A DNA stretch of 42,955 bases from Candidatus Giovannonibacteria bacterium RIFCSPHIGHO2_02_FULL_45_13 (GTDB lineage Bacteria; Patescibacteriota; Minisyncoccia; UBA11713; 2-01-FULL-45-33). Under the pieces are notes generated by a model that was not told the DNA's origin, made no database searches, and saw only the letters and a list, made by a program, of their open reading frames with translations. The first letter of the stretch is position 1; the number at the start of each line of letters is the position of its first letter. The translations under genes and the position numbers were made by a program. Where the stretch lies: contig MFHO01000004.1 of the NCBI GenBank assembly GCA_001778635.1, positions 11,415 to 54,369 on the forward strand, read 5' to 3'. Shown here in pieces: positions 2,483-42,286 of this stretch.

Positions 2483-2571
2483 TTATTTTCCCTTTAAAAA
2501 CCCGAGCATTTTTTCCAGAGGCCAGGCGTTGATGATGTCATTTTTTCCGCCCAGCCGCGGCATGCTTGAAA
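2483..2571 (-). pseudogene. Relic of a PolX 3' end (last ~29 codons incl. stop, frameshifted)
   Basis: Minus-strand translation gives QACRGWAEK, then a 1-nt frameshift in an A6 run, then NDIINAWPLEKMLGFLKGK*. The real PolX C-terminus is QARRGWATKADIINAWPLEKMLGFLKKGGR*. Nt 2496-2539 match 3667-3710 at 41 of 44 positions. A TAG sits upstream at 2572-2574. Confidence 0.8.
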
Positions 2572-2607
2572 CTAGAAAGCTTGCTCATTTTGTGCTAAAT
2601 TTCTGTT

Positions 2608-3645
2608 ATGTCAGAAAGTTTTTATCAGACAGCAGATAAGATAACCCCCGAAACCACGGAAAACAAACAGGCAGCCGAGCAGAAAAGAATCTTGAATCAG
2701 TTAGTTGAAGACGAAATCAATGAATGGAAAAAGGGATGTTTAACGCCGGAACCGCCGCCCGAATTGTTAGGTCATTTTCTGCAAATACAAGCAAGAATTA
2801 AAGCAAGTTGGTTTTACTCAGAAATCGATGATCCATTTTACGCCTGGCACACTACTGCGTATAATTTTTTCTTCGATCGATTTAAATTATCTTCAAAATC
2901 AGTTGCAGAAATTGAGAAAAGCGGCCAAGAAGCCGATAAAGTATTGCGGAATTTGAATAGAGAGAAATCTATTTTAGAACTTATGGAAGCCCTAAATCCG
3001 CTACCCTTAAATTGTTTTATAAATCACGAGAGGTTATATGGAAAACTGCGAGAATCCGTAGACATCCCAGGCGATAATAATGCCGTTGTATCTTTGTCAG
3101 TAGAAAGAATGCCTGGTTCGGAAAAAAATCCAAACCTGCCCGATTACGCTATGCAGATTAAGATAATGGATAGTGATGGTGCGCTTCTGCACGATTTCGG
3201 CCGAGACGTTAAGCCGGGCACCTTGTTTTTGGCGTGGCACAGAGACCAAGCTGACATCCAACAAAAATATATTCATGTTGGCGTATTCCAAAAACAGGGT
3301 TATTATAACAAGGGTAATTTTCAAGAACGACTTTCGGACGAAGCAATTTTCGCTCTTTGTCACGAAATAGGACACAATCAACAATTTAGCGACCAAGCCT
3401 TTATTGAAAAAGCCAAGAAAGTTGAAGGTGAAAATTGGATGCCGGATTATTCTCCTTTGGCAGAACGGGATGCGTGGGTAAGGGGTATTAAATTACTTAG
3501 ATCTATCCGCACCAGAGAGGGAAACAGAGTATTCACAACAAAGATCAATAAAAAAATAAAAGAAACGATCACTGCTTGTCTTAGCACCAGAGACGACGAA
3601 ACATTCAAAAAGGGTTATAAAAAAGGCAAAACGCCCATTAAATAA
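2608..3645 (+). CDS. hypothetical protein with HExxH zincin-type motif (345 aa)
   Basis: Long ORF with motif FALCHEIGHNQQF and a downstream acidic candidate ligand (PLAERDAW). No family recognised. Its stop lies 2 nt from the convergent polX stop. Confidence 0.6.
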   Translation: MSESFYQTADKITPETTENKQAAEQKRILNQLVEDEINEWKKGCLTPEPPPELLGHFLQIQARIKASWFYSEIDDPFYAWHTTAYNFFFDRFKLSSKSVAEIEKSGQEADKVLRNLNREKSILELMEALNPLPLNCFINHERLYGKLRESVDIPGDNNAVVSLSVERMPGSEKNPNLPDYAMQIKIMDSDGALLHDFGRDVKPGTLFLAWHRDQADIQQKYIHVGVFQKQGYYNKGNFQERLSDEAIFALCHEIGHNQQFSDQAFIEKAKKVEGENWMPDYSPLAERDAWVRGIKLLRSIRTREGNRVFTTKINKKIKETITACLSTRDDETFKKGYKKGKTPIK

Positions 3646-3647
3646 AT

Positions 3648-5384
3648 CTAACGACCCCCTTTCTTCAAAAACCCTAGCATTTTTTCCAGAGGCCAGGCGT
3701 TAATTATGTCTGCTTTAGTTGCCCATCCTCTTCTGGCTTGGGAGATGCCGATTTCAAGAAATTTAAAATGCGAGGCGGAGTGAGCATCGGAATCAATGGA
3801 CATTTTTACTCCTGCTTCAACGCACTTGCGAATATATTCGTCTTTTATATCTAATCGGTCAGGATACGCATCAATCTCTAAGACCGTGCCCGTGCGCTTG
3901 GCGGTTTGGATTATTTCATCAATATCAATTTCAATTGGCTCACGCCTATTTATAATCCGGCCGGTCAGATGGAAAATAATGTCCACGTTCGGGTTTTCCA
4001 TCGCTTTTATAATCCTCCTTGTTTGCTCCGTCCGCGATAATTTAAAATGGCTGTGCACGGCGGCTCCAACAACATCCAACTTTTTTAAAACTTCATTTTT
4101 GATGTCCAGCGAACCATCCTTGCCGATGTTCACTTCCGCGCCCTTTAAAACACGAATCTTGAAACCTGAAGCGTGAAGCTTTTTATTAATTTTATCAATT
4201 TCGGCCATCTGCTTCAGCAGTTTTTTTTCATCCGATCCGCCGGTCATAGCCAAAGATTTCGTGTGGTCGGTTATCGCGATATATTCCAATCCCGCTTCAT
4301 GCGCGGCTTTGGTCATTGCCTCAATAGAATCTTCCCCATCTGTCCAATTTGTTTGTGTTTGCAAATCACCTTTTAAATCTCCGTAGCCAATTAATTTCGG
4401 AAGCTTGCGAGTTTTGGCTAATTCCAGCTCGCCTGTATTTTCTCTCATCTCCGGTTCAATGTAATTAAGACCCAGCGCTTTATAAATTTCCTCCTCGGTG
4501 CGGCCAGCGACTTTCTTTTTTCTGCGAAATAGCCCATATTCATTCAACTTCCATCCTTTCTTGATCGCCATCTCGCGAAGCGCTATATTGTGATCTTTTG
4601 AACCGGTAAAATAATTAAGCGCGGCGCCATACGATTCTTTGGGCACAACGCGCAGGTCAGCGTCCAAACCATTCTTGAGTTTCACCATTGTTTTTGTTCC
4701 CCCTTTTGCGTAGACGTGCGCAATGAATGGCAAATCCACGAACCTATCCATTACTTTCTTCGGCGTCTTCGAGGTTGCCAAAATATCAATATCGCCGATG
4801 GTTTCTTTGCGTCGGCGCGTTGAGCCAGCAACTATGGCTTCCTTAACTTCAGGAAAGGCGCGGATCATTTTCTCCAAATTCCTGATTTCCGGCAAAATAA
4901 ATCCCAAAACCTGTCGGCCGCCCGATTTTTTCAAAAATTCAATCCCGCGCAAAATTTTATCTTCGGATTTTTGCCCAAACCTAGGTAATTTTCTAATTTT
5001 TTCCAACAGCGCTGCTTTTTCCAAATCTTTTAGGTTTTTTATTTTTAGTTTTTTATATAAAATTTTTATCATTTTCGGCCCCACGCCCTCTACCGCCGAA
5101 AGCTCCGAAATATTAACGGGAATTTTTCTCTTCAATTTTGCATATTCCGGAAAACGCCCCTTTTTTAAAAGAAGTTCGATGTGAAAAGCGATTCCTTTGC
5201 CCACCCCGGGAATTTTTAAAAGTTCTTTTGGGCCGTTCTCTTTATAAATATCTTTTACTTCCTTATTCAGCGCCTCAACTCCAAGCGCCGCCTTTTCATA
5301 GGCGCGCGGCTTGAACAAAACCCCCTCCATTTCATAAAGCTCCGCCATCTCCCGCAGGATTTTCGCAATTTCTTGATTAGACAT
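3648..5384 (-). CDS. polX: DNA polymerase X family protein with C-terminal PHP domain
   Basis: 578 aa. N-terminal Pol-beta-like HhH region (MSNQEIAKILREMAELYEMEG, GVGKGIA), nucleotidyltransferase motif GSTRRRKETIGDIDIL, and PHP-type motifs ITDHT, AVHSHF, DSDAHS. Confidence 0.92.
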   Translation of the reverse strand: MSNQEIAKILREMAELYEMEGVLFKPRAYEKAALGVEALNKEVKDIYKENGPKELLKIPGVGKGIAFHIELLLKKGRFPEYAKLKRKIPVNISELSAVEGVGPKMIKILYKKLKIKNLKDLEKAALLEKIRKLPRFGQKSEDKILRGIEFLKKSGGRQVLGFILPEIRNLEKMIRAFPEVKEAIVAGSTRRRKETIGDIDILATSKTPKKVMDRFVDLPFIAHVYAKGGTKTMVKLKNGLDADLRVVPKESYGAALNYFTGSKDHNIALREMAIKKGWKLNEYGLFRRKKKVAGRTEEEIYKALGLNYIEPEMRENTGELELAKTRKLPKLIGYGDLKGDLQTQTNWTDGEDSIEAMTKAAHEAGLEYIAITDHTKSLAMTGGSDEKKLLKQMAEIDKINKKLHASGFKIRVLKGAEVNIGKDGSLDIKNEVLKKLDVVGAAVHSHFKLSRTEQTRRIIKAMENPNVDIIFHLTGRIINRREPIEIDIDEIIQTAKRTGTVLEIDAYPDRLDIKDEYIRKCVEAGVKMSIDSDAHSASHFKFLEIGISQARRGWATKADIINAWPLEKMLGFLKKGGR

Positions 5385-5483
5385 AGTTGTATTTTAACAC
5401 TTTTTCTCCAGACTTGGCCGGGTTTTCCACCGATTATCCACAAAGCCCTCTTTTAACAATTATATTTCTGATATCATTGATTT

Positions 5484-5712
5484 GGGAGGACAAGCGACGT
5501 GCCGAGGCGTGCTGGCTTAGGTGCATCTATAGCCAAGCCGATCCGCCGCCGTGGGACCCCTGCACCCACTCATGCCGCAAAATAGATGATCGGGGTAAAA
5601 CGGGAAAGAATGCTTTAGCGCCCCGCATTGCGGGGTCACAACTTTCTCCGGTCTAGGGACAATCCCCCTTCCACTTATCCACAGCCTCTCCTTGAAGGGG
5701 CTGTTATTTTTT
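5484..5712 (+). ncRNA. candidate structured RNA ending in an intrinsic terminator (family not recognised)
   Basis: GC-rich block closed by GGGAGG (5484-5489) pairing with CCUUCC (5667-5672). Internal hairpins include CCCCGC-AUU-GCGGGG at 5621-5635. Followed by the terminator at 5682-5712. No credible ORF. Confidence 0.3.
5682..5712 (+). terminator. rho-independent terminator-like hairpin
   Basis: CAGCCUCU / AGGGGCUG 8-bp stem with a 6-nt loop, followed by TTATTTTTT. The T-run is on the plus strand only. Confidence 0.6.
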
Positions 5713-5740
5713 GAGACAATAAAATCAGGTAAATCTTTGG

Positions 5741-5935: not shown

Positions 5936-6592
5936 TTAGTGTTTTGTTGTCGGGTTTTTCGGTATCGGAGTAAAAGGAGGCAAAGCAACTGGGCGAGCGC
6001 CATTGAGCAACGGATAAAGGCGGATCAACAAAAAAAGCACCAAGAGATTCACAATGCCGCTTATCAAAAACAATAATTTAAACCCAAAAGCGTCGGCCAA
6101 GACACCACCGATTGCCCCACCGATGGCGCTGGAAATAGTAAGCCCGCCAACACTAAATAAACTCCACTCAAACCCCTCCGCGCCTTTGTCTACGTGGCGC
6201 GCAAACAAAGCATAATACGCAGCCATAAGCGCCGCGTCTCCCAGACCAACGAAAGCTTCCAGGGCATAAAGATGCCAAATCTTAGAAACGCCAAGAAGCG
6301 CGAACGGATAAATGACCGCGACAACCGCTCCTGCCATTAAGGTATAAAAATCGTCGCGTTCGCCGCTATGCTTATCTAAAAATTTTGCCAGAGGAACTTG
6401 CAAAAAGGACTTCGCAATCGCATAAAGCCCGAGCGCGAAACCCACGGTTTTTAAAGTGGCGCCGCCAACGAAATCCGTAACAAATACTGCAAAAATCGGC
6501 ACAAAAAGAGCGGTAGATGTTACTACCAAAAATAAATACAAAAGCAAAACCTGCACAGCGCGGTTTACGGTGATGTTGATTTTTATGCGCAT
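5936..6592 (-). CDS. MFS-like 6-TM membrane protein (half-size, 218 aa)
   Basis: About six hydrophobic helices. The loop LDKHSGERDD resembles the MFS D-R-x-G-R-R loop motif. Confidence 0.55.
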   Translation of the reverse strand: MRIKINITVNRAVQVLLLYLFLVVTSTALFVPIFAVFVTDFVGGATLKTVGFALGLYAIAKSFLQVPLAKFLDKHSGERDDFYTLMAGAVVAVIYPFALLGVSKIWHLYALEAFVGLGDAALMAAYYALFARHVDKGAEGFEWSLFSVGGLTISSAIGGAIGGVLADAFGFKLLFLISGIVNLLVLFLLIRLYPLLNGARPVALPPFTPIPKNPTTKH

Positions 6593-6656
6593 ATTAAAAG
6601 TTTAGCACATTGAACAAAATCTGTTCTATAAATATAATCAACAAATGGGATACGAA

Positions 6657-10747: not shown

Positions 10748-10969
10748 AACTTTTTTGGCAAAGAGCTTATTAAAATTTTAAGCCGCGAGTTCGGCTTTTA
10801 TTTTGTTTCGCAAAAAGGCAGTCATGTGAAACTGCGAAGAAAAATTGGCAATAAAGCTTTTACAACCATCATACCGCCTCACAAAGAACTCGCTCCAGGA
10901 ACTTTCCGCGCGGCGCTAAAACTCGGCGGTTTAGAGGAAGACGAATTTTGGAAAGTAGTGAAAAAATAA
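10748..10969 (+). pseudogene. hicA: HicA-family toxin reading frame without its own start codon
   Basis: Open frame GKELIKILSREFGFYFVSQKGSHVKLRRKIGNKAFTTIIPPHKELAPGTFRAALKLGGLEEDEFW. It is in the same frame as hicB, separated only by TAA 10745-10747. No ATG/GTG/TTG is present near its 5' end. Confidence 0.7.
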
Positions 10970-11414: not shown

Positions 11415-11657
11415 ATGGATTATGAACTGACCCGGCACGCGAAAGAACGAATGACGGAGCGCCGAATTTCGGAAAAACTGTTAGAAAGCGCGATTCTGCA
11501 TCCGAACAAATTATTGTATGACGAAAAAGACAAAATCATGTTTAAAAAATTGTACGCTGGAGATAAAAGATTATTAATTGTAGTCGCCGAGAGAGCAAAA
11601 AATAATTTAAAAATTATTACAATAATTGATACCTCAAAACCTGAAGAATATTTATGA
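11415..11657 (+). CDS. DUF4258-like putative toxin
   Basis: YELTRHAKERMTERRISEKLLESAI matches the DUF4258 H-A-x-x-R-M-x-x-R-x-I pattern. Overlaps the next gene by ATGA. Confidence 0.7.
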   Translation: MDYELTRHAKERMTERRISEKLLESAILHPNKLLYDEKDKIMFKKLYAGDKRLLIVVAERAKNNLKIITIIDTSKPEEYL

Positions 11658-11893
11658 AAAAACAAAATCCTAAAATTTCATACGACAAGGAAAGCCAAGT
11701 AATGAGTATAGAACTAGGCAGGGCCAAAAGTGTTGACTCAGACATCAGCGGCAATGTTGTCATTGATTATGACAAAAATGGCAAAGTTGCTCGTGTTAAT
11801 TTCTATGAGTTTAATTTTGATAATTTCCGCGCCGGATTCAAGGCCGTCAAAGAATTTACTAAAAAATTGGATATCGCGCTTTCGGTAAAATAA
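11654..11893 (+). CDS. DUF2283-like putative antitoxin
   Basis: ISYDKESQVMSIELG...GNVVIDYDKNGKVARVNF is the typical DUF2283 pattern. Confidence 0.7.
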   Translation: MKKQNPKISYDKESQVMSIELGRAKSVDSDISGNVVIDYDKNGKVARVNFYEFNFDNFRAGFKAVKEFTKKLDIALSVK

Positions 11894-18715: not shown

Positions 18716-18752
18716 ACTTGCCACAAAGCAGGATTTGTGATAAATTTGCTTT

Positions 18753-19160
18753 ATGGCTAACCAAACTATTACTGGCCCAATAATTTCTTTATCGGAGGTG
18801 ATAAAATCTCGGGAGCCCAAATCTTTAACGGAACAAAGGCTGATTTCGCTCTTAACTAAAAGATTTGGTGATTTACAAATAATCTGGAATCCAAAAGCAT
18901 TTCGGGAAGGACTGAACAATCCAGAACTCCCTAGTAATATTCTTAAAAAACTGGATTCGTTGCTTTTGCTTGCTGAGACAATAGATTGGAAAATTTCAAA
19001 GCCGTTAAAAGACGAACTGGATTCTACAGTTGAAGATATAGAAACTTTCAATCCCTCATTTAGAATGCGCCTTAAAAAAGCTTCTGAAGAATTTAGAGCC
19101 GGTAAATTTATTGCCTTGGAGGCGTTGGAGAAAAAGTTCGGACTTACTAAAAAACATTGA
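18753..19160 (+). CDS. hypothetical protein, putative antitoxin partner of RelE
   Basis: 135-aa ORF directly upstream of the RelE/ParE gene, 5 nt apart. No family recognised. Confidence 0.45.
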   Translation: MANQTITGPIISLSEVIKSREPKSLTEQRLISLLTKRFGDLQIIWNPKAFREGLNNPELPSNILKKLDSLLLLAETIDWKISKPLKDELDSTVEDIETFNPSFRMRLKKASEEFRAGKFIALEALEKKFGLTKKH

Positions 19161-19164
19161 CTTT

Positions 19165-19416
19165 ATGAATGTCGCTCTTTCTCCGCAAGCCAGCGATTTT
19201 TTGAAGAAGTGCCCAATCAATTTACGAAAAAGAATTCTCAACAAAATAAAATTCTATGCTTCCGCTCCAGATCCGTTAGAATTTGCCGAACATCTCACTG
19301 ATGACTCGGAGGCGCCTTATCGTTATAGAATTGGCGATTGGCGGGTTAAGTTTGCGGTAGAAAACAACACAATTACAGTTAAACGAATTGGCCGCCGCGA
19401 CAAAATTTATGAATAG
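19165..19416 (+). CDS. relE: RelE/ParE-family toxin
   Basis: From the internal ATG at 19165: MNVALSPQASDFLKK...PYRYRIGDWRVKFAVENNTITVKRIGRRDKIY, the classic RelE/ParE C-terminal pattern. Confidence 0.8.
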   Translation: MNVALSPQASDFLKKCPINLRKRILNKIKFYASAPDPLEFAEHLTDDSEAPYRYRIGDWRVKFAVENNTITVKRIGRRDKIYE

Positions 19417-19440
19417 CGATATGGAGGTCAACACTTTGTT

Positions 19441-19483
19441 CTCCGAAGGCGAAGTGGTGGGCGAAGGGATTGTGGCGGAGTAG
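19441..19483 (+). pseudogene. Relic copy of the nusA 3' end (last 13 codons + stop)
   Basis: The 43 nt match nusA 18673-18715 at 38 of 43 positions. It encodes SEGEVVGEGIVAE*, versus SEGEVVGEGIAGE* in nusA. Confidence 0.8.
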
Positions 19484-32654: not shown

Positions 32655-33029
32655 ATGACCAAGGTTTTGATAGCAGACGACGACGCCTTTCTTTCGGATA
32701 TGTATGTTTTTAAGTTTAAGGAATCCGGTTTTGAGGTTGAGGTTGCCAAAAACGGCGAGGATGCGGTGGCAAAAGCCAAAAGCGTAAATCCCGACGTGAT
32801 TCTTTTGGATATCGTTATGCCTAAAATGGACGGCTTCGAAGCTCTTCGAGCGATCAAAGAAAATGGCGTCGCTCCAAATGCCATCGTCGTGGTTTTATCT
32901 AATCTTGGCCAAAAAGAAGATGTGGAAAAAGGTCTCAAGCTCGGCGCTAATGATTACATCATAAAAGCCCATTCCACTCCTTCTGAAGTTGTGGCTAAAG
33001 TTAAAAGTCTGCTTGAGAAACATGGCTGA
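32655..33029 (+). CDS. Stand-alone response-regulator receiver protein (CheY-like)
   Basis: VLIADDD...PDVILLDIVMPKMDG...VVLSNLGQ...GANDYIIKA, the canonical REC domain. 124 aa. Confidence 0.9.
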   Translation: MTKVLIADDDAFLSDMYVFKFKESGFEVEVAKNGEDAVAKAKSVNPDVILLDIVMPKMDGFEALRAIKENGVAPNAIVVVLSNLGQKEDVEKGLKLGANDYIIKAHSTPSEVVAKVKSLLEKHG

Positions 33030-34092
33030 TTACGGAAAATTTTTGGAAGAGCTTATTGCGAATGTGGCGGAAGAGGGCGCTTCGGATTTGCATTTGTCGG
33101 TTGGCAGGCATCCGGTGCTCCGGGTTTCTGGCCAATTGGTTCCTCTCACCAAAAAGCCGATTCTTGCGCAAGCCGATACTGCCGGTTTGGCGGAAGCGCT
33201 GATGGGCAAAGATTGGTATCATGAATTTCTTACCGGCAAAGAACGCGATTTTTCTTATTCGTATAAAGACAAGCTCCGTTTTCGCGTAAACGCTTATTTT
33301 CAAAAAGGCTCTGTTGGCGTGGCGCTTCGCATCGTGCCGTATAAAATAAAAACACTGGAAGAATTAAACATGCCGCCTGCTTTGAGCGAATTTACCAGGC
33401 GCCAACAAGGATTCTTTTTGGTGGTAGGTCCAACCGGCCACGGAAAATCAACGACGCTCGCGGCAATGGTTGATCTTATTAACCACACAAAAACCGAACA
33501 CATTATAACCATTGAAGACCCGATTGAATATATTTTTACTCCTGATCGATCGATGATTGATCAAAGAGAAGTCGGTTTGGATACGAAAGATTTCGCGACA
33601 GCTTTACGGTCCATGTTTAGGCAAGACGTGAACGTGGCTATGATTGGAGAGATGCGCGACAACGAAACGATGTCTGCGGCGGTAACGGCTGCGGAAACCG
33701 GACATTTAATTTTTTCATCGCTGCATACAAATAACGCCGCGCAAACCATAGATCGGATTATTGATACTTTTCGGGCGGACCAGCAGGGGCAGATAAGGGC
33801 GCAGCTGGCAAGCACGCTCATAGGCGTTTTTTCTCAAAGGCTTATACCGCGGGTTTCCGGCGGGCTTATTCCGGCGTACGAGCTTTTGATTTCTAACGCG
33901 GCAGTAAGAAATTTGATAAGGGAAAACAAAGTTCACGAGCTTGATTTGGTAATAGAAACGAGCGCCCAATTCGGGATGGTCAGTTTTAACAGATCGCTGA
34001 TTGATTTGGTGCGAAGAGGCGAAATTACAATGGAAAACGCTCTGCTGTTTTCCTTAAACCCGCAGGAGCTAAGAATTTTAGCCGGGAAATAG
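33022..34092 (+). CDS. pilT: Type IV pilus retraction ATPase PilT
   Basis: From ATG 33022 (ATGGCTGA overlap with the REC gene). ASDLHL, Walker A GPTGHGKST, VNVAMIGEMRD, TGHLIFSSLHTN, AVRNLIRENK. Confidence 0.92.
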   Translation: MADYGKFLEELIANVAEEGASDLHLSVGRHPVLRVSGQLVPLTKKPILAQADTAGLAEALMGKDWYHEFLTGKERDFSYSYKDKLRFRVNAYFQKGSVGVALRIVPYKIKTLEELNMPPALSEFTRRQQGFFLVVGPTGHGKSTTLAAMVDLINHTKTEHIITIEDPIEYIFTPDRSMIDQREVGLDTKDFATALRSMFRQDVNVAMIGEMRDNETMSAAVTAAETGHLIFSSLHTNNAAQTIDRIIDTFRADQQGQIRAQLASTLIGVFSQRLIPRVSGGLIPAYELLISNAAVRNLIRENKVHELDLVIETSAQFGMVSFNRSLIDLVRRGEITMENALLFSLNPQELRILAGK

Positions 34093-34096
34093 GGCC

Positions 34097-35314
34097 ATGC
34101 AGTTTCAATACAAAGCAAGGACCGGGGAAGGCGAGGGGACGGAGGGGGTGATTGAAGCGGCCAGCCTCGATTTAGCTGTTGCCTCTTTGCAGAGGCGCAA
34201 TTTTTTGGTGATCTCGATTGAGCCTACTGAAGTAGCCGCGAAAAGCGTGTGGAACATTGCTGGATGGTCAAGCATTTTCGAAAGGGTGCCCGTAAAAGAT
34301 GTTGTGATTTTGACCAGGCAGCTATCCACCCTTTTTGAAGCCAAGGTTCCGATTGTGGAAGCGTTGAAAATCATAATCGGTGAAACAGGAAATAAATTGC
34401 TCAAAAGGCGGATGTCCGATCTTTTGGACGAAATTCAGGGCGGGATGGCGATGAGCCAGGCAATGGCGCGTCATCCGGAAATTTTTTCCCGTTTCTATGT
34501 TGCCATGATTAGATCAGGCGAGGAATCCGGGAAGTTGGAGGAAATATTCACTTTTTTGGCTGATTATCTTGAGCGCTCATTTGAGCTTACAAGAAAAGCA
34601 AGGAACGCTTTGATTTACCCGGCCTTTGTTCTCTCGGCTTTTATCGCGGTGATGTCTCTTATGCTTGTTTTTGTAATTCCGAATTTGGCCGATATTTTAC
34701 TTGAAGCCGGTCAGGAAATCCCGATCTACACCCGCATTGTTATAGGTTTAAGCGAATTTATAAGAAGCTTTGGACTGGTGCTTTTGTTGTTTGCGGCAGT
34801 TTTGAGCGTGTTTTTGTCAAAATACGCGCGCACGGAAAACGGAAAGATGTATTTCGCAAGGCTTTTGATTTCAATTCCGATAGTCGGAGGGCTTTATAAA
34901 AAAATTTATCTTTCCAGAATCTCTGACAATCTTCATACTCTTCTTTCAGGCGGCATAACCGTGGTGCGCGCTCTCGAAATTACGGCGGAAGTCGTCGGGA
35001 ATGAGATTTACCGCAGAATTCTTCTGGATTCGGTGGAAATGGTAAAGAGCGGTAGCATGATATCAGACGCTTTTTCAAAGTATGCAGACATCCCTCCGCT
35101 GCTTGCACAAATGGTCAGAATCGGCGAAGAGACTGGGAAATTGGATTATATTTTAAGCAGTATTTCCAATTTTCACAGGCGCGAGGTGGATAATTTGATA
35201 GACAATTTGGTTAATCTCATAGAGCCTGTTTTAATCGTGGCTTTGGGTTTGGGCGTGGGGGTTTTGGTCGCGGCGGTCTTGATTCCGATATATAACATAT
35301 CCACAGCCTTCTGA
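34097..35314 (+). CDS. pilC: Type IV pilus platform protein PilC (GspF family)
   Basis: 405 aa with two T2SSF repeats (LTRQLSTLFEAKVPIVEAL, ISDNLHTLLSGGITVVRAL) and three TM helices. Confidence 0.92.
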   Translation: MQFQYKARTGEGEGTEGVIEAASLDLAVASLQRRNFLVISIEPTEVAAKSVWNIAGWSSIFERVPVKDVVILTRQLSTLFEAKVPIVEALKIIIGETGNKLLKRRMSDLLDEIQGGMAMSQAMARHPEIFSRFYVAMIRSGEESGKLEEIFTFLADYLERSFELTRKARNALIYPAFVLSAFIAVMSLMLVFVIPNLADILLEAGQEIPIYTRIVIGLSEFIRSFGLVLLLFAAVLSVFLSKYARTENGKMYFARLLISIPIVGGLYKKIYLSRISDNLHTLLSGGITVVRALEITAEVVGNEIYRRILLDSVEMVKSGSMISDAFSKYADIPPLLAQMVRIGEETGKLDYILSSISNFHRREVDNLIDNLVNLIEPVLIVALGLGVGVLVAAVLIPIYNISTAF

Positions 35315-35341
35315 TTTATCGGGTTTAATCTGTGGTATAAT
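35313..35341 (+). promoter_or_regulatory. candidate promoter of the first pilin gene
   Basis: Extended -10 TGgTATAAT (35333-35341) with a weak -35 GATTTA 17 nt upstream. Confidence 0.45.
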
Positions 35342-35391
35342 CGCTTTTAAGAGGTCGATTACCGAACTTTTAATGGATTTTAACTTTTTTT

Positions 35392-35865
35392 ATGTTTAAT
35401 TATAAAAAATCAGGCAAATTTGGGTTCACTTTGATAGAATTACTTGTTGTGATCGCCATTATCGGCATTTTAGCCTCCGTTGTTTTAGCTTCGTTAAACT
35501 CTGCCCGCAAGAAGTCTAGAGATGCCCGCAGACTTGCTGATATCAAGCAGATTCAGGTGGCTTTGGAGCTTTATTTTGACGCGAATGCCAATGAATATCC
35601 TGACGCAACATCTGATTTAGACCCGACTTATATTGCGGTTGTGCCAACTGATCCGAACGGAGGAGCATATGGATACGACAATCTTACCAACGCTAGCGCA
35701 GCTTGCGCTGTCGCAACTGGTGTGTGTACCTCTTATGTTCTGAAGGCCGTCTTAGAAGACGATAATCCGGCGTTGGATAACGACATTGATGGCACGGTAG
35801 GATCTGCGTCGTGCGGCGCCAATCCTGAAGTGACTCCGGACTGGTGGTATTGCGTCCAGCCGTAA
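35392..35865 (+). CDS. Type IV pilin (prepilin-type N-terminal methylation domain)
   Basis: Leader MFNYKKSGKFG followed by FTLIELLVVIAIIGILASVVLASL. C-terminal Cys pairs. Confidence 0.88.
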   Translation: MFNYKKSGKFGFTLIELLVVIAIIGILASVVLASLNSARKKSRDARRLADIKQIQVALELYFDANANEYPDATSDLDPTYIAVVPTDPNGGAYGYDNLTNASAACAVATGVCTSYVLKAVLEDDNPALDNDIDGTVGSASCGANPEVTPDWWYCVQP

Positions 35866-35873
35866 ATTCGTAA

Positions 35874-36356
35874 ATGGATAGGCGGCGCGGTTTCACATTA
35901 ATAGAGCTTTTAGTGGTGATTGCCATTATTGGCATATTGGCCTCTTTGGCTTTGGCATCTTTCAATTCCGCAAGGCTTAAATCCAGAGACGCGCGGCGGG
36001 TCGCGGATATTAATCAGATCAAAGTTGCTTTGGAGCTTTATTTTGACGCAAACGCAAACATTTATCCTGCTGATGCTGATGGGTTGGGCGCGCTTGACCC
36101 TGCTTATATAACTGTTGTTCCGCGTGATCCTGTTGGCAATACGCCGTACTCTTACCATCGCTGTGTGGCCCCGTCTTCTAAATATCACTTGGGTGCAAGT
36201 TTGGAAGAAAGTACTCACGCCGCTTTGAGCGTTGATTTGGACAATACTCCGTGTGGCGCCGGAGAATCCGGGGATTTTGCCAATTCCGCCAACAACGATT
36301 CAGGCAAATGTAATTCCACAGACTCCGGCGTAGCTTGTTATGACCTTAGCCCTTGA
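35874..36356 (+). CDS. Type IV pilin, paralogue
   Basis: MDRRRG/FTLIELLVVIAIIGILASLALASF. Shares ...RDARR.ADI.QI.VALELYFDANAN with the upstream pilin. Confidence 0.88.
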   Translation: MDRRRGFTLIELLVVIAIIGILASLALASFNSARLKSRDARRVADINQIKVALELYFDANANIYPADADGLGALDPAYITVVPRDPVGNTPYSYHRCVAPSSKYHLGASLEESTHAALSVDLDNTPCGAGESGDFANSANNDSGKCNSTDSGVACYDLSP

Positions 36357-36362
36357 TATTAA

Positions 36363-37136
36363 ATGATTGAAGTCGCTGTTTTTGTTTTCGGTGCTATTAT
36401 CGGCAGTTTTTTTAATGTGGTTTTACTTCGGAAAAACACCGGCGAGTCCGTTATTTTTACCGGCTCCCGGTGTTTTTCGTGCGGGAAAAAACTTTCGTGG
36501 CTTGAGCTTATTCCGATTTTGAGTTTTTTGATGCAACGCGGAAGATGCAGTCCGCCAGCTGGCGGATGCGGGAGCAAGATTTCTTGGCAGTATCCAGTTG
36601 TTGAATTTTTGGTCGGGCTTTTGGCCGTTTTAATTCACTTGGAAACTAAGTTTCCAAGTGGAAACTTAGTTTCCAAGCTATTTTATTTCGCTGCTTTTTC
36701 GACCTTATTTCTGATTGTTGCCTATGATTTTCGCACGAAGATTATTGATACGCACCTTCTTTATATTTTCGGTGTTTTTTCGTTGGTGGAGTTTGTCCGA
36801 GCAGGCGGCTACGCGAATAATTTAATCTCATCATTTTTAATCGCCTTGTTTTTTTATTTTTTGTGGAGATTTTCCGGCGGGCGCTGGATGGGCAGGGGAG
36901 ACGCGAATTTGGCTTTTTTCACCTCTTTATTTTTGGGCTGGCCGCTGAATCTCGCTGCGCTTTTTGTTTCTTTCTGGCTTGGCGGGCTTGCCGGATTTTT
37001 TCTTTTGCTTTTTCGGAGACGCGATTTCAGTTTGAAAAGTGAAATTCCATTCGGACCATTCTTGGCCACCTCTACTTTTTCGGTTTGGTATTTCGCGGAT
37101 TTTTTCAGCGAGCTTACAAGGCTTTTCGTGCTATAA
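36363..37136 (+). CDS. pilD: Prepilin peptidase (A24 family, PilD)
   Basis: CFSCGKKLSWLELIP, GRC...C..ISWQYPVVE, YDFRTKIID, GRGDANLAFF (active-site Asp regions). Confidence 0.88.
   Translation: MIEVAVFVFGAIIGSFFNVVLLRKNTGESVIFTGSRCFSCGKKLSWLELIPILSFLMQRGRCSPPAGGCGSKISWQYPVVEFLVGLLAVLIHLETKFPSGNLVSKLFYFAAFSTLFLIVAYDFRTKIIDTHLLYIFGVFSLVEFVRAGGYANNLISSFLIALFFYFLWRFSGGRWMGRGDANLAFFTSLFLGWPLNLAALFVSFWLGGLAGFFLLLFRRRDFSLKSEIPFGPFLATSTFSVWYFADFFSELTRLFVL
36638..36677. repeat. tandem pair of 19-21-nt palindromes inside pilD
   Basis: CTTGGAAACTAAGTTTCCAAG followed by TGGAAACTTAGTTTCCAAG. Each unit is self-complementary, and the two differ essentially by the centre base. Confidence 0.85.
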
Positions 37137-37145
37137 TTTAAATTA

Positions 37146-37733
37146 ATGCACAAACGCGCCTTCACGCTCATAGAGGTTGTTGTGGTTATCGGAGTGATGG
37201 CCATTATTTCTTCTGTAATGCTTGCCCACTTTCCCAGATTTAACAAACAAATTGCTGCGGAGCGCGAAGCGAGGAAGTTGGTGCTGGCTTTAAGGAAGGC
37301 GCAATTTTATGCGCTTGCTGTGCGCGAATTTAATCCAACTTTTAATGACGATCCTTTTTGCGTAAATCCTCCGGTAAGATTTCCCGGGTACGGGCTATTT
37401 TTGAGCATTGCCGATCAGTCGCGCTATTTTATTTACGGCGATGTCAGCTGCTCAAAATACTATGAAAGTTCGCCGGTTGAAGAAATTGCGGAAGCTGCAA
37501 ATTTTGAAAGCAAAATATCGATTACCTCAATTAAGGGGTTTGACGCGTCAATTTGCGCCGCTGGATGCGAGCTCGACGAAATTTCTGTTTTATATGTCAG
37601 GCCCGGCCCGACAACCCGGATTCGAAGCGGTGGGGTGGATTATAATTACGCAGAATTTGTTTTAAGCTCTTCAGACGGCTCGGTCCAAAAAAAAATCGTT
37701 GCGCGCTTTACCGGACAGGTATCCGTTGAGTAA
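37146..37733 (+). CDS. minor pilin-like protein
   Basis: MHKRA/FTLIEVVVVIGVMAIISSV prepilin-type N-terminus. Confidence 0.75.
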   Translation: MHKRAFTLIEVVVVIGVMAIISSVMLAHFPRFNKQIAAEREARKLVLALRKAQFYALAVREFNPTFNDDPFCVNPPVRFPGYGLFLSIADQSRYFIYGDVSCSKYYESSPVEEIAEAANFESKISITSIKGFDASICAAGCELDEISVLYVRPGPTTRIRSGGVDYNYAEFVLSSSDGSVQKKIVARFTGQVSVE

Positions 37734-37735
37734 TC

Positions 37736-38269
37736 ATGAAACATAAAACATCAAAAATGAATAATGCCTCGTGCTTCATGCTTAGCGCTTTAGGATTTTC
37801 GTTGCTGGAAACGACGGTGGCTATTGCGATTTTGATAACCGCGATTATCGGTCCGCTAACATTAGCTTCGTCTAGCATCAAGGCTTCAGCCACCGCGAAA
37901 AATAATCTTATAGCCGCTAATTTGGCGCAGGAAGGCGTTGAGCTTGTAAAAAATCACCGTGCTAACAATGTTCTTGCGGAGCGCGACTGGCTTTACGGCT
38001 TTGGAGATTGCCTTACAGAGGTTGGCTGTACAATAGATGCGCTGACTATTGAGATAAACCTGTGCGGCGCTTCGTGCGAGCCGATTAAGCTAGACGAGCA
38101 ATCGGGGCTTTACAGTTACGGCGCCGGCAATCCGACTATTTTCGCGCGCAAAATCAATCTGGTGGAAACCGTAGGCGCGCGCGAAGTCAAAATCAAAAGC
38201 GCAGTTTCGTGGACGGATCGTTTCGGCGCGCAGAAGTTCGAATTAGAAGCTTATATGCTGAATTGGTAA
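37736..38269 (+). CDS. minor pilin-like protein
   Basis: ...SALG/FSLLETTVAIAILITAIIGPL prepilin-type N-terminus after a long leader. Confidence 0.7.
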   Translation: MKHKTSKMNNASCFMLSALGFSLLETTVAIAILITAIIGPLTLASSSIKASATAKNNLIAANLAQEGVELVKNHRANNVLAERDWLYGFGDCLTEVGCTIDALTIEINLCGASCEPIKLDEQSGLYSYGAGNPTIFARKINLVETVGAREVKIKSAVSWTDRFGAQKFELEAYMLNW

Positions 38270-38271
38270 AT

Positions 38272-38805
38272 ATGAAAGGATTTACTCTATTAGAAATGAT
38301 TGTGGCGTTGGGGGTTTTTGCGACCGTCGCGTTGATTTCGGCAAGCTCTTTGCTTTTACTTACAGACGCGCAAAGAAAAGCCTTTTCTTTGCAATCTGCT
38401 TATGACAATGTCCGTTTTTCATTGGAGGTAATGGCCAGAGACTTGAGGACCGGCTATTCTTATTACTGCGGCTCAGATCAAAATGATATTATTCAGGAAC
38501 CAACGTCGCGAGATTGTCCGGCAGGCGGTCCTGCAATAAGCTATAAAAATTTTTCCGGGAACACGGTCAATTACCGGATTTTTGAAGGACGCATAGAAAA
38601 ATTTGTCGATGGCATTTTTGTTGGCGCAATGACTTCTGAAAATATTATTGTTGATACCCTCACTTTTTATGTTGTTGGGTCTCCATCGGATGACGACTGG
38701 CAGCCCAGAGTGGCTATTGTGATAAAAGGGGAGGCGGGCAGTGGCAGGTCGATGTCAAAATTTAATTTGCAAACTACCGTTAGCCAGAGAAAAATAAATT
38801 TATGA
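38272..38805 (+). CDS. minor pilin-like protein
   Basis: From ATG 38272: MKG/FTLLEMIVALGVFATVALI. Confidence 0.75.
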   Translation: MKGFTLLEMIVALGVFATVALISASSLLLLTDAQRKAFSLQSAYDNVRFSLEVMARDLRTGYSYYCGSDQNDIIQEPTSRDCPAGGPAISYKNFSGNTVNYRIFEGRIEKFVDGIFVGAMTSENIIVDTLTFYVVGSPSDDDWQPRVAIVIKGEAGSGRSMSKFNLQTTVSQRKINL

Positions 38806-39224
38806 AAAAACGCGGAGTAACGTTGCTTTTGGCAATATTTATATCAACGCTCGCGACTTCTTTGGGGCTTGGCATATTCGCGATTATTTTCGGCGAGCTT
38901 GGGATTTCCGGCGTGGCAAAAGAATCTTTAGTGGCTCTTTACGCTGCCGACTCCGGCGCTGAATGCGCTATTTATTGGGATATCAAACAGCAAGCTTTTT
39001 CAACAACGACCTCTTCAAGCATAAATTGCGCCGGCAGCGATTTTACTGTTGGCGGATCTCCGCTATCTATATTTGATTTAACTCTACCAAACGATTCTTG
39101 CGCGCATATTCAGGTTCAAAAAAGCGACGGCGGAACTACCGTGACTTCGTTAGGCAGCAACAATAGTTGCGACTCGGCTTCTCCGTCGCGCACAGTTCAG
39201 CGCGGCCTTGAAGTGACGTATTGA
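38802..39224 (+). CDS. pilus-associated protein with hydrophobic N-terminus (PilX-like, tentative)
   Basis: MKKRGVTLLLAIFISTLATSLGLGIFAII. ATGA overlap with the preceding pilin gene. Confidence 0.45.
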   Translation: MKKRGVTLLLAIFISTLATSLGLGIFAIIFGELGISGVAKESLVALYAADSGAECAIYWDIKQQAFSTTTSSSINCAGSDFTVGGSPLSIFDLTLPNDSCAHIQVQKSDGGTTVTSLGSNNSCDSASPSRTVQRGLEVTY

Positions 39225-39333: not shown

Positions 39334-41817
39334 ATGGCTCAAAAAGACAGCGAAACTAACTCCCAAAAAGTGGGGGTAGGGGGGGCAATAGGAACTGTAT
39401 CTCCGCGAGAGATTGTTTTGGAGATGCAGGAGTCGTATTTGGATTACGCGATGTCGGTTATTGTCGCGCGCGCCCTGCCGGATGTCCGTGACGGTCTAAA
39501 GCCTGTGCACCGCAGGATTCTGTTTGCGATGAATGAGATGGGTCTTACGCATAGCGCCAAAACAAAAAAATCCGCAAATGTGGTCGGCGAGGTGCTTGGG
39601 AAATATCATCCGCACGGAGATACGGCGGTTTACGATTCTTTGGTAAGAATGGCCCAAGATTTTTCGCTGCGTTACCCGCTGATTGAAGGGCAAGGAAACT
39701 TTGGATCCATTGACGGAGATTCGGCTGCCGCAATGCGTTATACCGAGGCAAGAATGTCTGCGATTGCCTCCGAAATGTTAAAGGACATTGAAAAAGAAAC
39801 CGTTAATTTTGTTTCGAATTACGATAATACAAAAAAAGAACCCGTTGTTTTGCCTGCGGCAATGCCGCAGCTGCTCCTAAATGGTTCTATGGGTATCGCG
39901 GTTGGAATGGCGACTAACATCCCGCCGCATAATCTTACGGAAGTCACGGACGCGACTTTGCATTTGATGAACCATCCAAAGGCGACGGTGGAGGAGCTTA
40001 CAGAATTTGTAAAAGGCCCGGATTTCCCAACCGGCGGAATAATTTTTAATAAAAAAGAAATTTTACAGGCTTACGCAACAGGCCGCGGAGGCGTGGTGAA
40101 CAGAGGAGAGGCAGAAATTTTAGAACGGAAAAACGGAGAGTGGCAGATTGTCATCACGTCCATTCCTTATCTTGTGAATAAATCCGAGCTTATCGTAAAA
40201 ATGGCCGACTTGGTGCACTTAAAAAAATTGGAAGGGATAAGGGACATACGAGACGAGTCAGACAAAGAAGGGCTTCGCATCGCGATTGATTTGAAAAGGG
40301 ATTCTTATCCGCAGAAAGTTTTAAACAATCTTTATAAACACACGGATCTGGAGCGGACGTACCATTTTAACGTGATCGCGTTGGTTGACGGCGGACTGCA
40401 GCCGAAAACGCTTTCTTTAAAAAGCATTTTAGAAGAGTTCGTTAAACACCGGCGCATTATCGTGGAGCGAAGAGCGCGGTTTGATTTGGCGCGCGCCGAG
40501 GAGCGGGAGCACATTCTTCTGGGATTGAAAAAGGCTTTGGAACATATTGACGCGGTTATAAAGACAATAAAAAGCTCGGATGACAGAGAAGATGCCCATA
40601 AAAATTTGATCAAAAAGTTTGATTTGTCGGACAAACAGGCAGCGGCGATTTTAGAGATGCGCCTTCAGACTTTGGCAGGACTTGAGCGGCAAAAAATTGA
40701 AGATGAACTTAAGGAAAAACAAAAACTCATCAAAGAATTGAAAGTGCTGTTGGGCGATCCGAAAAAAATTGACGAAGTGATTAAAAACGAACTTTCCGAG
40801 ATAAAAAAGAAATACGGAGACGAAAGGAAAACTAAAGTTATTTCTGGCGCTGCCAAAATTATCTCGGCAGAGGACTTGGTTGCCGAGGAAGAAACTATTC
40901 TTATATTAACCCAAGGAGGATATGTAAAGCGCATAAAGCCTGATGAATACAGAGTGCAGAAGCGCGGCGGGAAGGGAGTGATCGGGGTTACGACCAAAGA
41001 TGAAGATTTTGCATATGAATTTATCGGAGGAAATACGCACGATGATTTGCTCTTTTTTACGAATTTAGGAAAAGTTTATCAGACAAAAATGTATGAAATT
41101 CCGGAGGGCACAAGGCAGGCGAAGGGCAAGGCGATTGCAAACTTTCTTTCCTTGGCTGTGGATGAAAAAGTGACTTCGGTATTGCCAGTGCCCAAAACAA
41201 AGAAAGGGCAGTCTAGTTACGTGATCCTGTCCACTCAAAAAGGAGTTACCAAAAAAGTAAATTCCAAAGATTTTGAGGACGTTAGGCATTCCGGAATCCG
41301 CGCTATTAATTTGCAAAAAGGTGACACCTTGCGTTTTGCCCGCGTGGTTATGTCGGGAGAAGAAATTGTGCTTTCATCAAAATTGGGGCAGGCCATTCGT
41401 TTTAAAGAAAAAGACATCCGAGCCATGGGCAGGACGGCGCAGGGCATTCGCGGGATGAGGCTTAAGAGTAAAGACGAACTGGTTGGAATGGATATACTCC
41501 CGCAATCTGCGAAAAAATTGGAAATTTTGTCGGTTTCGCAATTGGGTTACGGCAAGAAAACGCTGATTTCGCAATATCGTTTGCAAAAGCGCGGCGGCTC
41601 TGGAGTTAAAACCTGCAAGGTTACATCCAAGACCGGAAATTTGGTTTCCGTACAGGTTGTTAAAGACGATCAGGAAGAAATTATCGCAATTTCAAAAAAA
41701 GGCCAGGTCATCCGCGCGCCGCTTTCGCAAATCCCCTCGCTTTCCCGCGCCACCCAAGGCGTTAGGATAATGAAATTAAACTCCGGCGATTCCGTCGCCT
41801 CGGTGACGCTGCTGTAA
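39334..41817 (+). CDS. gyrA: DNA gyrase subunit A
   Basis: [31 protein letters not shown], active-site [10 protein letters not shown], and C-terminal beta-pinwheel repeats. Confidence 0.97.
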
Positions 41818-41828
41818 AAAAGAAAAAA

Positions 41829-41853
41829 GCCAAGAGTTATTGTTTCTTAGCTG
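41829..41853 (+). repeat. hairpin element gccaaga-N-gtttcttagctg (copy 2)
   Basis: GCCAAGAG-UUAUUG-UUUCUUAGC, 12 nt after the gyrA stop. Shares gccaaga and gtttcttagctg with 6657-6683. Confidence 0.5.
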
Positions 41854-41882
41854 ACATATTAAAAAAAGGAGATTTGAATACA

Positions 41883-41981
41883 ATGTACAGCGCAGTCATG
41901 AATAGTACAAAGGTCATCAATTTGTACCCAAGAGCAATGTTGAATATGCGGTACGGATGTGTTAGGCTTTGTTTATGCTAA
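41883..41981 (+). CDS. small ORF, 32 aa (below ORF-track cutoff)
   Basis: AGGAG lies 11 nt upstream of the ATG. MYSAVMNSTKVINLYPRAMLNMRYGCVRLCLC. Its stop overlaps the next ATG (ATGCTAA). Confidence 0.3.
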   Translation: MYSAVMNSTKVINLYPRAMLNMRYGCVRLCLC

Positions 41982-42166
41982 GCGATTCGCAATTGAAGTT
42001 TCTATCGGATGTGTCGTTGATGACAGGACAAGTTTGTTTGGCATCGTTAGTGATTCCATACTTTATTTCTCAATTCAATGCAAGCTTTTTATTGCTCGGT
42101 ATTATATTAACAGCAAGTTCTTGGTTAGTCGGCTTGCTTATTATCAGAAACGTTAAAAATATTTAA
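41975..42166 (+). CDS. small 2-TM membrane protein (63 aa)
   Basis: MLSDSQLKFLSDVSLMTGQVCLASLVIPYF...LLLGIILTASSWLVGLLII. Weakly similar to the 6786-6962 product. Confidence 0.45.
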   Translation: MLSDSQLKFLSDVSLMTGQVCLASLVIPYFISQFNASFLLLGIILTASSWLVGLLIIRNVKNI

Positions 42167-42171
42167 CTGCT

Positions 42172-42258
42172 ATGTACACATTTTATTTGATAGTTGCCAT
42201 AGCGCTGCTCGCAATTGCAATAGCGGCCTACCCGACTCTGCGTAGCCGCAACAAGTAG
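42172..42258 (+). CDS. small hydrophobic peptide, 28 aa (below ORF-track cutoff)
   Basis: MYTFYLIVAIALLAIAIAAYPTLRSRNK. Same position and character as the peptide at 6677-6766. Confidence 0.3.
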   Translation: MYTFYLIVAIALLAIAIAAYPTLRSRNK

Positions 42259-42262
42259 CCTC

Positions 42263-42286
42263 GTCGCCTCGGTAACGTTGCTGTAA
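42263..42286 (+). pseudogene. Relic copy of the gyrA 3' end (last 7 codons + stop)
   Basis: gtcgcctcggtaacgttgctgtaa matches gyrA 41794-41817 (gtcgcctcggtgacgctgctgtaa) at 22 of 24 positions. Both encode VASVTLL*. Confidence 0.7.

Follow-up and report, generated by a model that had tools for sequence, protein, structure and literature searches.

Insertion with long target duplication was reportedly described by Nobusato et al. in 2000. Its documented cases are restriction-modification units without mobility genes that lie between 46-bp repeats over gene 3' ends; repeats of this kind run from tens to hundreds of base pairs, are 90-100% identical and occur as a single copy in the empty genome, and the inserts are found mostly in naturally competent bacteria, by a mechanism that Furuta, Abe, and Kobayashi (2010) left unresolved (PMC2853133). 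The criteria applied were an insert of <20 kb, no mobility genes, direct repeats of >30 bp, and a single copy in an insert-free genome (PMC2853133). Cis-mobilizable elements (CIMEs) keep attL and attR with the integrase lost, and tandem accretions of them have been described (PMC5704250), and islands targeted to ssrA are also known (PMC3146451). In natural transformation of exonuclease-deficient Vibrio, one 40-bp homology arm is enough for integration (PMC5499599). Here we analyze the 3' ends of three genes, polX, nusA, and gyrA, in a stretch of 42,955 nucleotides of contig MFHO01000004.1 (the window), whose closest relatives are annotated as Candidatus Giovannonibacteria, in the Candidate Phyla Radiation. 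The preliminary description of the window held that no described class of element leaves the layout found at these genes without a recombinase inside the insert; this was wrong, as both insertion with long target duplication (PMC2853133) and CIMEs (PMC5704250) do so, and each scar is of an already described but poorly understood kind.

Each of the three genes is intact and is followed by an insert without an integrase, and then by a second copy of the gene's own 3' end in which the stop codon is in register with the end of that gene. This is the arrangement that had been claimed, and all of its parts are present at each site:

3648..5384, minus strand: intact polX, 578 amino acids (Pfam DNA_pol_B_thumb, HHH_8, and PHP; a family X DNA polymerase with a PHP domain)
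3648..3740, minus strand: terminal repeat unit of intact polX, 93 nt, encoding QARRGWATKADIINAWPLEKMLGFLKKGGR and the stop codon
2569..3647: polX cassette, 1079 bp, a single gene convergent on polX plus its upstream region
2483..2568, minus strand: displaced polX 3' end (relic), 86 nt, 29 codons with a 1-nt frameshift and its own stop codon
17441..18715, plus strand: intact nusA (Pfam NusA_N and KH_5), with its repeat unit at 18673-18715
18716..19440, plus strand: nusA cassette, 725 bp, of toxin-antitoxin type
19441..19483, plus strand: nusA 3'-end relic, 43 nt, reading SEGEVVGEGIVAE and a stop codon (protein-level match, E = 6e-5)
39334..41817, plus strand: intact gyrA (Pfam DNA_topoisoIV and six DNA_gyraseA_C), with its repeat unit at 41793-41817
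41818..42261, plus strand: gyrA cassette, 444 bp, with three small open reading frames (ORFs)
42262..42286, plus strand: gyrA 3'-end relic, 25 nt, reading VASVTLL and a stop codon

Self-BLASTN of the window ranked the polX and nusA pairs as its two strongest direct repeats, and the gyrA pair as the best of those remaining once paralogs and palindromes were set aside; all three are significant (E = 1.7e-12, 5e-9, and 0.012, respectively), as the claim required of a self-alignment. The ungapped polX core (2492-2539 against 3663-3710) is 44/48 identical, and the full relic is about twice the length of this 48-nt repeat; it reads QACRGWAEK, then a frameshift caused by a 1-nt deletion, then DIINAWPLEKMLGFLKGK and a stop codon. 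The nusA units are identical at 38 of 43 positions, the BLAST match covering 42 nt (18673-18714 and 19441-19482), and encode SEGEVVGEGIAGE and SEGEVVGEGIVAE, each with its stop codon. Twenty-three of 25 positions are identical between the gyrA units, the E value being window-wide, and both encode VASVTLL-stop, the conserved C-terminus of the gyrA family. Two sets of gene ends (572 and later 549), taken from the window and related loci, were scanned against their downstream 2.5-3 kb; the three window pairs scored 33, 30, and 19, and all controls (reverse-complement and reversed-query) scored 18 or less. A protein-level scan of the 51 window genes returned exactly the polX, nusA, and gyrA relics. 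After filtering, the only relics among about 1100 background gene ends, other than those of diversity-generating retroelements (DGRs), were at polX, and three in one 43-kb window are therefore unusual. All three cassettes are also 5-6 points lower in GC (38.2% at nusA, 39.3% at polX, and 37.6% at gyrA, a range of 37.6-39.3%) than the window at 44.3%, a foreign composition.

The repeats are not products of assembly, since the same junctions recur across many independent assemblies: that of nusA is 100% identical in contigs of seven assemblies or samples, that of polX is found in >20 contigs at 99.6-100% identity, and that of gyrA is 100% identical over 6 kb in a second metagenome-assembled genome (MAG). 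An apparent variant at the polX junction (L200) is merely a scaffold gap of Ns. Exact-protein look-ups with nusA, the NYN gene next to its relic, ORF151 next to that of polX, the HExxH gene of the polX cassette, and gyrA returned no cassette-free allele within the species, and the arrangement is, as judged from these contigs, fixed there. The expected presence/absence polymorphism thus stood between species, where it is seen at all three sites, but not within the species, where >20 contigs lack an empty allele.

DGRs are common in this bacterial group, and true variable/template pairs do produce a gene end plus a downstream copy in three related loci:

L088:8216-10603 with 10817-10967: DGR pair
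L089:82-801 with 1100-1219: DGR pair
L010:7014-7787 with 6544-6603: DGR pair

In these pairs, every mismatch is at an adenine of the downstream copy. The mismatches of the window pairs (polX, A>C, T>C, A>C, and G>A; nusA, A>G, C>T, C>T, G>C, and A>G; gyrA, G>A and C>T) are mixed and not adenine-specific in either direction, and there is no reverse transcriptase among the window ORFs; a DGR origin was therefore rejected. The same mismatches are partly synonymous, which bears out the earlier view that the copies are diverged alleles rather than fresh duplications. Three further look-alikes in related loci were discarded as low-complexity sequence (L025), a tandem paralog (L135), and a tandem repeat (L117).

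The history of the polX site can be followed in most detail. Its features, in addition to those above, are:

3676..3701, minus strand: 26-nt block exactly equal to 2505-2530, the inferred crossover interval, where the hybrid pattern described below switches
3648-3675, minus strand: imported replacement end of polX (...GFLKKGGR-stop), 3' of the 26-nt block, matched by no relative at >65%
2608-3645, plus strand: HExxH ORF, 345 amino acids, with an HExxH motif
2461-2485: native polX terminator (AAAACGCGTTGAGCGTTTTTT), following the relic; the same terminator is present in L089
1992-2447: ORF151, 151 amino acids, convergent, beyond the polX relic and terminator

The comparison set comprised 80 metagenomic polX loci of 61-84% protein identity from about 60 distinct lineages, with 5-kb flanks. 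The upstream genes, for a uracil-DNA glycosylase (UDG) and a major facilitator superfamily (MFS) transporter, are conserved in these loci, and the order UDG-MFS-polX is kept, whereas the downstream side is variable. The relative L089 has an empty site: a single polX end (...GLLKGK-stop), then the same terminator, and then an ORF151 homolog that is 65% identical, where the window has copies of 86 and 93 nt. Because L089 carries what follows the window relic, the relic is the native polX end. The repeat was then split at the 26-nt identical block and each part compared with relatives. The left part of the intact copy is 82% identical to L089, whereas the left part of the relic is 87% identical to the alleles of L090/L094 and only 66% to L089; conversely, the right part of the relic with its flank (polX end, terminator, and ORF151 homolog) is 83% identical to L089, and the right part of the intact copy has no match in relatives better than 65%. 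Both copies are hybrids of two allele classes, and one of them was therefore imported rather than made by duplication of the target. As we read this pattern, they are the reciprocal products of one crossover, within the 26-nt block, between the chromosome and a molecule with a diverged polX end. By the same alignments, that partner bore a diverged copy of the last ~29 codons of polX beside the HExxH gene, and the present polX end (...GFLKKGGR-stop) came in with that gene. A sliding-window search for the donor tract against 12 relatives was uninformative, as no relative exceeds 85% identity and polX is a mosaic gene. The proposal that the element supplies a replacement end is thus upheld at polX, by the empty site, the hybrid pattern, and a tandem copy in the relative L168; at nusA and gyrA it is plausible.

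The cargo of the polX cassette is a near-orphan. The HExxH protein has no Pfam or PADLOC family and only two relatives, one 65% identical (in L168) and the other, from among 1.84 billion cluster representatives, 28%; its gene is absent from all 80 related polX loci. In L168, a 2-kb contig, the HExxH homolog is again abutted tail-to-tail by a polX end, the two together being conserved at 76% nucleotide identity, and is also preceded by a polX-end fragment, so that polX-end copies flank it on both sides. This abutting end, too, is a fragment; in the place of the polX body, a cassette for a trypsin-like protein lies upstream of it. As a second, unrelated cassette replaces the polX body, L168 is a tandem array of at least two cassettes.

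A search with the polX tail detected downstream polX-end relics in at least seven related lineages (L090/91, L109/110, L121, L154, L160/161, L139, and L168), with partial evidence in a further three (L118, L144, and L165). The cargo at these relics is unrelated across lineages: in L090/91, for example, it is a gene for a B12-binding radical-SAM protein (1.7 kb), and elsewhere it is non-coding sequence. Eight polX junctions begin within one 12-nt zone, at the codons for QARRGWA; four of them start with CAAGC (the window, two in L168, and L109) and three with CGCGGCTGGGC (L090, L121, and L154). The sequence underlying this zone, GCCCGCCGCGGCTGGGC, is a near-palindrome as read by eye. To judge from these loci, the polX 3' end is a recurrent hot spot for cassettes in many lineages. 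One locus has a different layout. In L144 (1977-3286), polX is followed by two overlapping small ORFs of 95 and 108 amino acids, toxin-antitoxin-like and with no Pfam match, then by a short stretch similar to positions -102 to -81 of polX, and by a NUDIX gene that seems to be duplicated in part; the hot spot has apparently undergone a more complex rearrangement here.

In five of the relatives (L121, L154, L139, L118, and L165), the space from polX to the relic is only 100-120 nt and holds a conserved small non-coding element of ~75-115 nt, which we call R1. It is found at the 3' ends of both polX and the gene for transfer-messenger RNA (tmRNA), which it follows in L121 and L151. Copies were located as follows:

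L121:6745-6820 and L121:9272-9344: R1
L154:2470-2537: R1
L139:1799-1874: R1
L118:6752-6828: R1
L151:7895-7961, minus strand: R1
L165:2101-2149: R1

The order of parts is constant: gene end, sometimes a terminator, an inverted target copy of 11-20 nt, the core, and the direct relic. The core runs GGGGTCGGG...CCCGTGTAGGA...AACCGAGGGTT...GAGGGAG plus a variable hairpin, and has two covarying hairpins; in helix 1, five of nine pairs differ at both bases, and pairing is kept in 98% of cells. Rfam gave no meaningful match to R1 even at E up to 10, only tRNAs and tmRNA passing the gathering score. A covariance model of R1 found no match in the window, nor was an inverted target copy significant in its cassettes (p = 0.65, 0.22, and 0.09), and R1 therefore does not explain the three window cassettes. 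What R1 shows, as far as sequence comparison goes, is that small non-autonomous units with replacement ends exist in the clade.

The nusA cassette encodes a toxin-antitoxin pair:

18753-19160, plus strand: ORF of 135 amino acids, putative antitoxin
19165-19416, plus strand: ParE/RelE-family toxin (Pfam ParE_toxin, E = 1.4e-5)

The stop codon of the nusA relic is 2 nt from that of a convergent NYN gene (19486-19989), a proximity that suggests that the relic is the original gene end, although no relative shares that neighbor; indeed, no compared relative shares the flank downstream of the relic. After nusA, relatives have a HicAB pair (in a 90% relative), another ParE-like toxin, an unrelated ORF, or the pyrophosphatase gene directly. 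An ATG-initiated ORF of 20 codons (MEVNTLFSEGEVVGEGIVAE and a stop codon; 19421-19483) runs in frame across the relic and is probably incidental.

The gyrA cassette holds three ORFs, none with a Pfam or PADLOC match:

41883-41981, plus strand: ORF 1, 32 amino acids
41975-42166, plus strand: ORF 2, 63 amino acids, hydrophobic
42172-42258, plus strand: ORF 3, 28 amino acids, hydrophobic

Its relic is 24/25 identical to the gyrA end of a 91% relative (L175). Between gyrA and the ribonucleotide reductase gene, relatives have nothing (72 nt), a methyltransferase gene and a 121-amino-acid ORF, or a NUDIX gene. Like the position after nusA, this one is a hot spot of variable cassettes in relatives. 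Two MAG contigs of a related species in which gyrA is 88% identical (L205 and L206; GCA_000998125.1 and GCA_001780425.1) both end at last base 5507, each in ...GGCGATTC (...AACTCCGGCGATTC), exactly one base before the start of the window gyrA repeat, which suggests a repeat or a strain fork at that boundary. The ~340 nt from the gyrA relic to the start of the reductase gene (42287-42637) contain a terminator-like hairpin (42374-42400) and a minus-strand ORF of 79 amino acids (42398-42637), and the sequence of this gap is absent from the "empty" relative L175; it may be the remnant of an older cassette.

The explanation that we favor, although we give it only about an even chance of being correct, is that the three are independent scars of recombination-driven insertion of cassettes that carried a replacement gene end, the catalyst being general homologous recombination. 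Recombination in the last 25-115 nt of a conserved gene would let an accessory cassette in; the incoming DNA would bear its own diverged copy of the gene end, which now completes the gene, and the native end would be displaced to the far side of the cassette, there to decay, as by the frameshift in the polX relic. The cell's own recombination machinery, acting on the short conserved homology of the gene end, would suffice, with no integrase borne by the cassette. Uptake of the DNA would probably be by natural transformation, as competence functions, namely of the type IV pilus and ComFC-like kinds, are encoded in the window. Once in place, the two gene-end copies could serve as portable homology arms, allowing transfer into relatives, tandem accretion, turnover of cargo, and precise loss. 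The pilus and ComFC-like genes lie at:

27329-39224: PilM, PilB, PilT, PilC, prepilin peptidase, and pilins
26509-27291: ComFC-like gene

About 26 nt is roughly the minimal length for efficient RecA-type exchange. General recombination is favored because the 26-nt polX block is of about this length, because the homology between the imported polX segment and its target extends to either side of the crossover, and because pilus and ComFC-type uptake functions are encoded. It is also favored because 40-bp arms work in natural transformation (PMC5499599) and because restriction-modification units, mostly in competent species, are documented to leave an equivalent footprint without an integrase (PMC2853133).

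Several observations weigh against this explanation. The eight polX junctions, with at least four unrelated cargos, fall in one 12-nt zone; general recombination would not be expected to place them so regularly, unless they all go back to one or two founding duplications. Identity is unbroken for only 18 nt at nusA and 12 nt at gyrA, which is little for exchange of the RecA type, and the L154 relic shares no identical block of >8 nt with its intact copy. Relatives that have other cassettes after nusA or gyrA have no relics; the replacement-end mechanism is therefore not general there, and what speaks for it at both sites comes from the window, apart from the suggestive contig breaks at the gyrA boundary. 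The look-ups above turned up no donor genome, no circular form, and no empty allele within the species, and competence is deduced from gene content only.

It was also suggested in the preliminary description that a trans-acting system might be responsible. None could be shown, and no candidate enzyme was found either by Pfam in the window or by a motif screen of the related loci. Neither the inserts nor the rest of the 43-kb window encode a tyrosine or serine recombinase (by Pfam, and for the inserts also by PADLOC); a crude motif regex over 1280 ORFs in 1.8 Mb of related loci gave only three spurious matches, and no recombinase was seen within 5 kb of the polX relics, downstream of polX in the 80 loci, or at the gyrA and nusA relatives, about 100 related loci in all. 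Even so, a tentative case, the main rival to general recombination, can be made that the cassettes are non-autonomous elements moved in trans by a dedicated site- or structure-specific system, encoded elsewhere or on a helper, for which the gene-end copy is the attachment site; the polX (and tmRNA) ends would then be an integron-like platform for cassette accretion. Such a system would account for relic boundaries in the same 12-nt zone in at least seven lineages with unrelated cargo, and for the tandem array of L168; the target GCCCGCCGCGGCTGGGC is nearly palindromic, a common feature of recombinase core sites, R1 keeps its covarying hairpins and constant layout at two unrelated targets, and two MAG contigs break exactly at the gyrA repeat boundary. 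However, the three window sites share no junction motif, their cassettes have neither R1 nor a significant inverted target copy, the only transposase in the window is of the IS200-like Y1 family, which makes no target duplications, and the homology on both sides of the polX crossover is needed by general but not by site-specific recombination. A more specific version, which we consider unlikely, is that Giovannonibacteria and their relatives have a family of integrase-less cassettes targeting the 3' ends of conserved genes (polX, tmRNA, and perhaps nusA and gyrA), inserted by a trans-acting and possibly structure- or RNA-guided system. Its minimal form would be the ~100-nt R1, with a replacement end, a target-complementary sequence of 11-20 nt, and a core of covarying hairpins. 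The polX end would then resemble an integron as a chromosomal platform, though one made from the coding sequence of a housekeeping gene.

The transposase just mentioned lies inside the type IV pilus operon (gene, 29843-30505; region, 29813-30538), bracketed by two copies of the palindrome ACTTAGACGTCCGACGTCTAAGT (29813-29845 and 30506-30538); the ORF itself contains a third (30030-30062). Mobilization of the cassettes by an IS200/IS605 element or by a REP-associated tyrosine transposase (REP-RAYT) was considered and rejected, as none of the three cassettes contains these palindromes and the mechanism is at odds with the long repeats. A Y1 transposase gene also lies immediately upstream of gyrA in a related MAG (L205:2187-2879).

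It is improbable that the scars are CIME-like remnants of integrase-bearing islands or prophages that had entered the 3' ends of polX, nusA, and gyrA and later lost the integrase and most cargo. Direct repeats of a gene 3' end together with an element-supplied end are, admittedly, what attL and attR classically look like; integrated elements are known to give rise to CIMEs and tandem accretions (PMC5704250), and tmRNA, the second target of R1 in relatives, is a classic island target (PMC3146451). Against this, none of the 80 polX loci or of the gyrA and nusA relatives has a recombinase, and the inserts are 0.1-1.7 kb everywhere, with no intermediate or full-size element seen. In addition, the repeats are 85-92% identical with mismatches on both sides, rather than having an exact core followed by unrelated arms.

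Homology-facilitated illegitimate recombination was reportedly described by de Vries and Wackernagel in 2002. In a one-sided event, donor DNA that natively has the cassette after the gene would recombine through the long gene homology on one side and join illegitimately in the recipient's last codons on the other; the relic would be wholly native and its boundary accidental, which is possible for nusA and gyrA only. At these two sites, the relics begin abruptly with no upstream homology, and suitable donors exist among relatives, in which nusA and gyrA are followed immediately by toxin-antitoxin or other cassettes and no relic. For polX, the idea is refuted by the left 38 nt of the relic, which are of a different allele class and travel with the cassette in L168; it can account for neither recurring boundaries nor arrays, and as an explanation of the three scars we think it quite improbable. 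That the repeats are not insertion scars at all, but DGR pairs, chance similarity, or assembly chimeras, is hardly credible, since DGR pairs do mimic the layout in related loci but the targets here are housekeeping genes, the scores exceed all controls, the junctions are the same in many assemblies, and both the mismatches and the lack of a reverse transcriptase in the window speak against DGRs.

The window also holds ftsZ, transporter genes, pnp, and five tRNA genes in addition to the type IV pilus operon and the ComFC-like gene. Two DUF4258 + DUF2283 gene pairs (11415-11893 and 15770-16188), one upstream of pnp and the other between Ham1-like and DksA-like genes, are likely toxin-antitoxin-like cassettes, and have no detectable gene-end relic. 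The only HNH endonuclease ORF in the window (23437-23937, minus strand) has weak matches to homing-endonuclease and ZorE models and overlaps the 5' 15 nt of tRNA-His (23380-23451, minus strand); it is unrelated to the three sites. The relics of tRNA-His and tRNA-Ser(GCT) that had been proposed as counterparts of the gene-end scars did not rise above shuffled background. The only tRNA-related repeat to do so is a 19-nt copy (17/19; 26385-26403) of the D-arm to the anticodon stem of tRNA-Ser(TGA), 14 nt upstream of that tRNA (26417-26505), and its layout is unlike that of the 3'-end relics. The cassette proteins were not found in viral contigs and match no PADLOC defense family; the L168 trypsin-like and L090 radical-SAM proteins gave only weak hits.

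Members of the Candidate Phyla Radiation are uncultured, with tiny genomes and few recognizable mobile elements, and how they gain accessory genes is poorly known. The scars show a concrete route, in which a cassette travels with a copy of the last codons of a conserved gene; it can thereby enter with no damage to an essential gene and no recombinase of its own, and it leaves a datable relic behind. The polX landing pad offers a convenient marker by which to follow gene flux, and could also be used as a neutral site for integration. If it is true that the boundaries and the target-complementary R1 reflect a dedicated system, this would be a new type of site-selective DNA insertion. There is also a practical warning: gene-end repeats in these genomes mix DGR template repeats with insertion scars, and censuses of relics should be filtered by the mismatch spectrum, which tells the two apart.

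Compared with known systems, the polX site fits insertion with long target duplication in its repeats (86/93 nt) and in the single copy in L089; the 43-nt nusA repeat fits in length, but no relative shares its downstream flank, and the gyrA repeat, at 25 nt, is below the 30-bp criterion. In that process, both copies come from the target, whereas here the polX copies are reciprocal hybrids, one of them imported; the cargo there is restriction-modification and here a ParE-type toxin-antitoxin pair, an orphan HExxH protein, and small peptides; and, unlike there, one coding target, the polX end, is reused across many lineages, with arrays. Integrative elements of gene 3' ends likewise supply a replacement 3' end, displace the native end as the far direct repeat, and build up in tandem. 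The window inserts have no recombinase and so fail the defining test, but the layout works in the same way. Like CIMEs, they keep both repeats and lack integration and transfer genes; an integrase-bearing element of the same specificity was not found beside polX, nusA, or gyrA in the ~100 related loci screened by motif regex. They differ from integrative elements and CIMEs alike in their size (0.1-1.7 kb), in repeats that are homologous on both sides of the crossover, and in having three sites with no common motif. In the mobile ORFs (mORFs) of fungal mitochondria (Allomyces atp6 and Rhizophagus mORFs), the inserted homing endonuclease ORF drives the event; an intact host gene with a foreign 3' end, an inserted ORF, and a displaced native end as a pseudogene fragment are common to both, but the endonuclease is in the insert there and none is present in the window cassettes. 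DGRs also repeat a gene 3' end a few hundred nucleotides downstream at 85-95% identity, but with template-adenine mismatches and a nearby reverse transcriptase, neither of which holds for the three window pairs. Integron/attC arrays differ in that the window cassettes have no integrase and no significant inverted repeat (by a general scan, attC itself not being formally scanned). With Xer-dependent modules (IMEX, integrative mobile elements exploiting Xer, and pdif), the difference is that the three repeats share no motif and are, by eye, unlike canonical dif, which may not be the dif of this lineage. Short-arm transformation and illegitimate recombination, finally, resemble the present case in bringing in heterologous DNA without a dedicated recombinase, anchored in a conserved gene; unlike it, they are laboratory mechanisms, which alone predict neither a second gene-end copy nor recurring boundaries.

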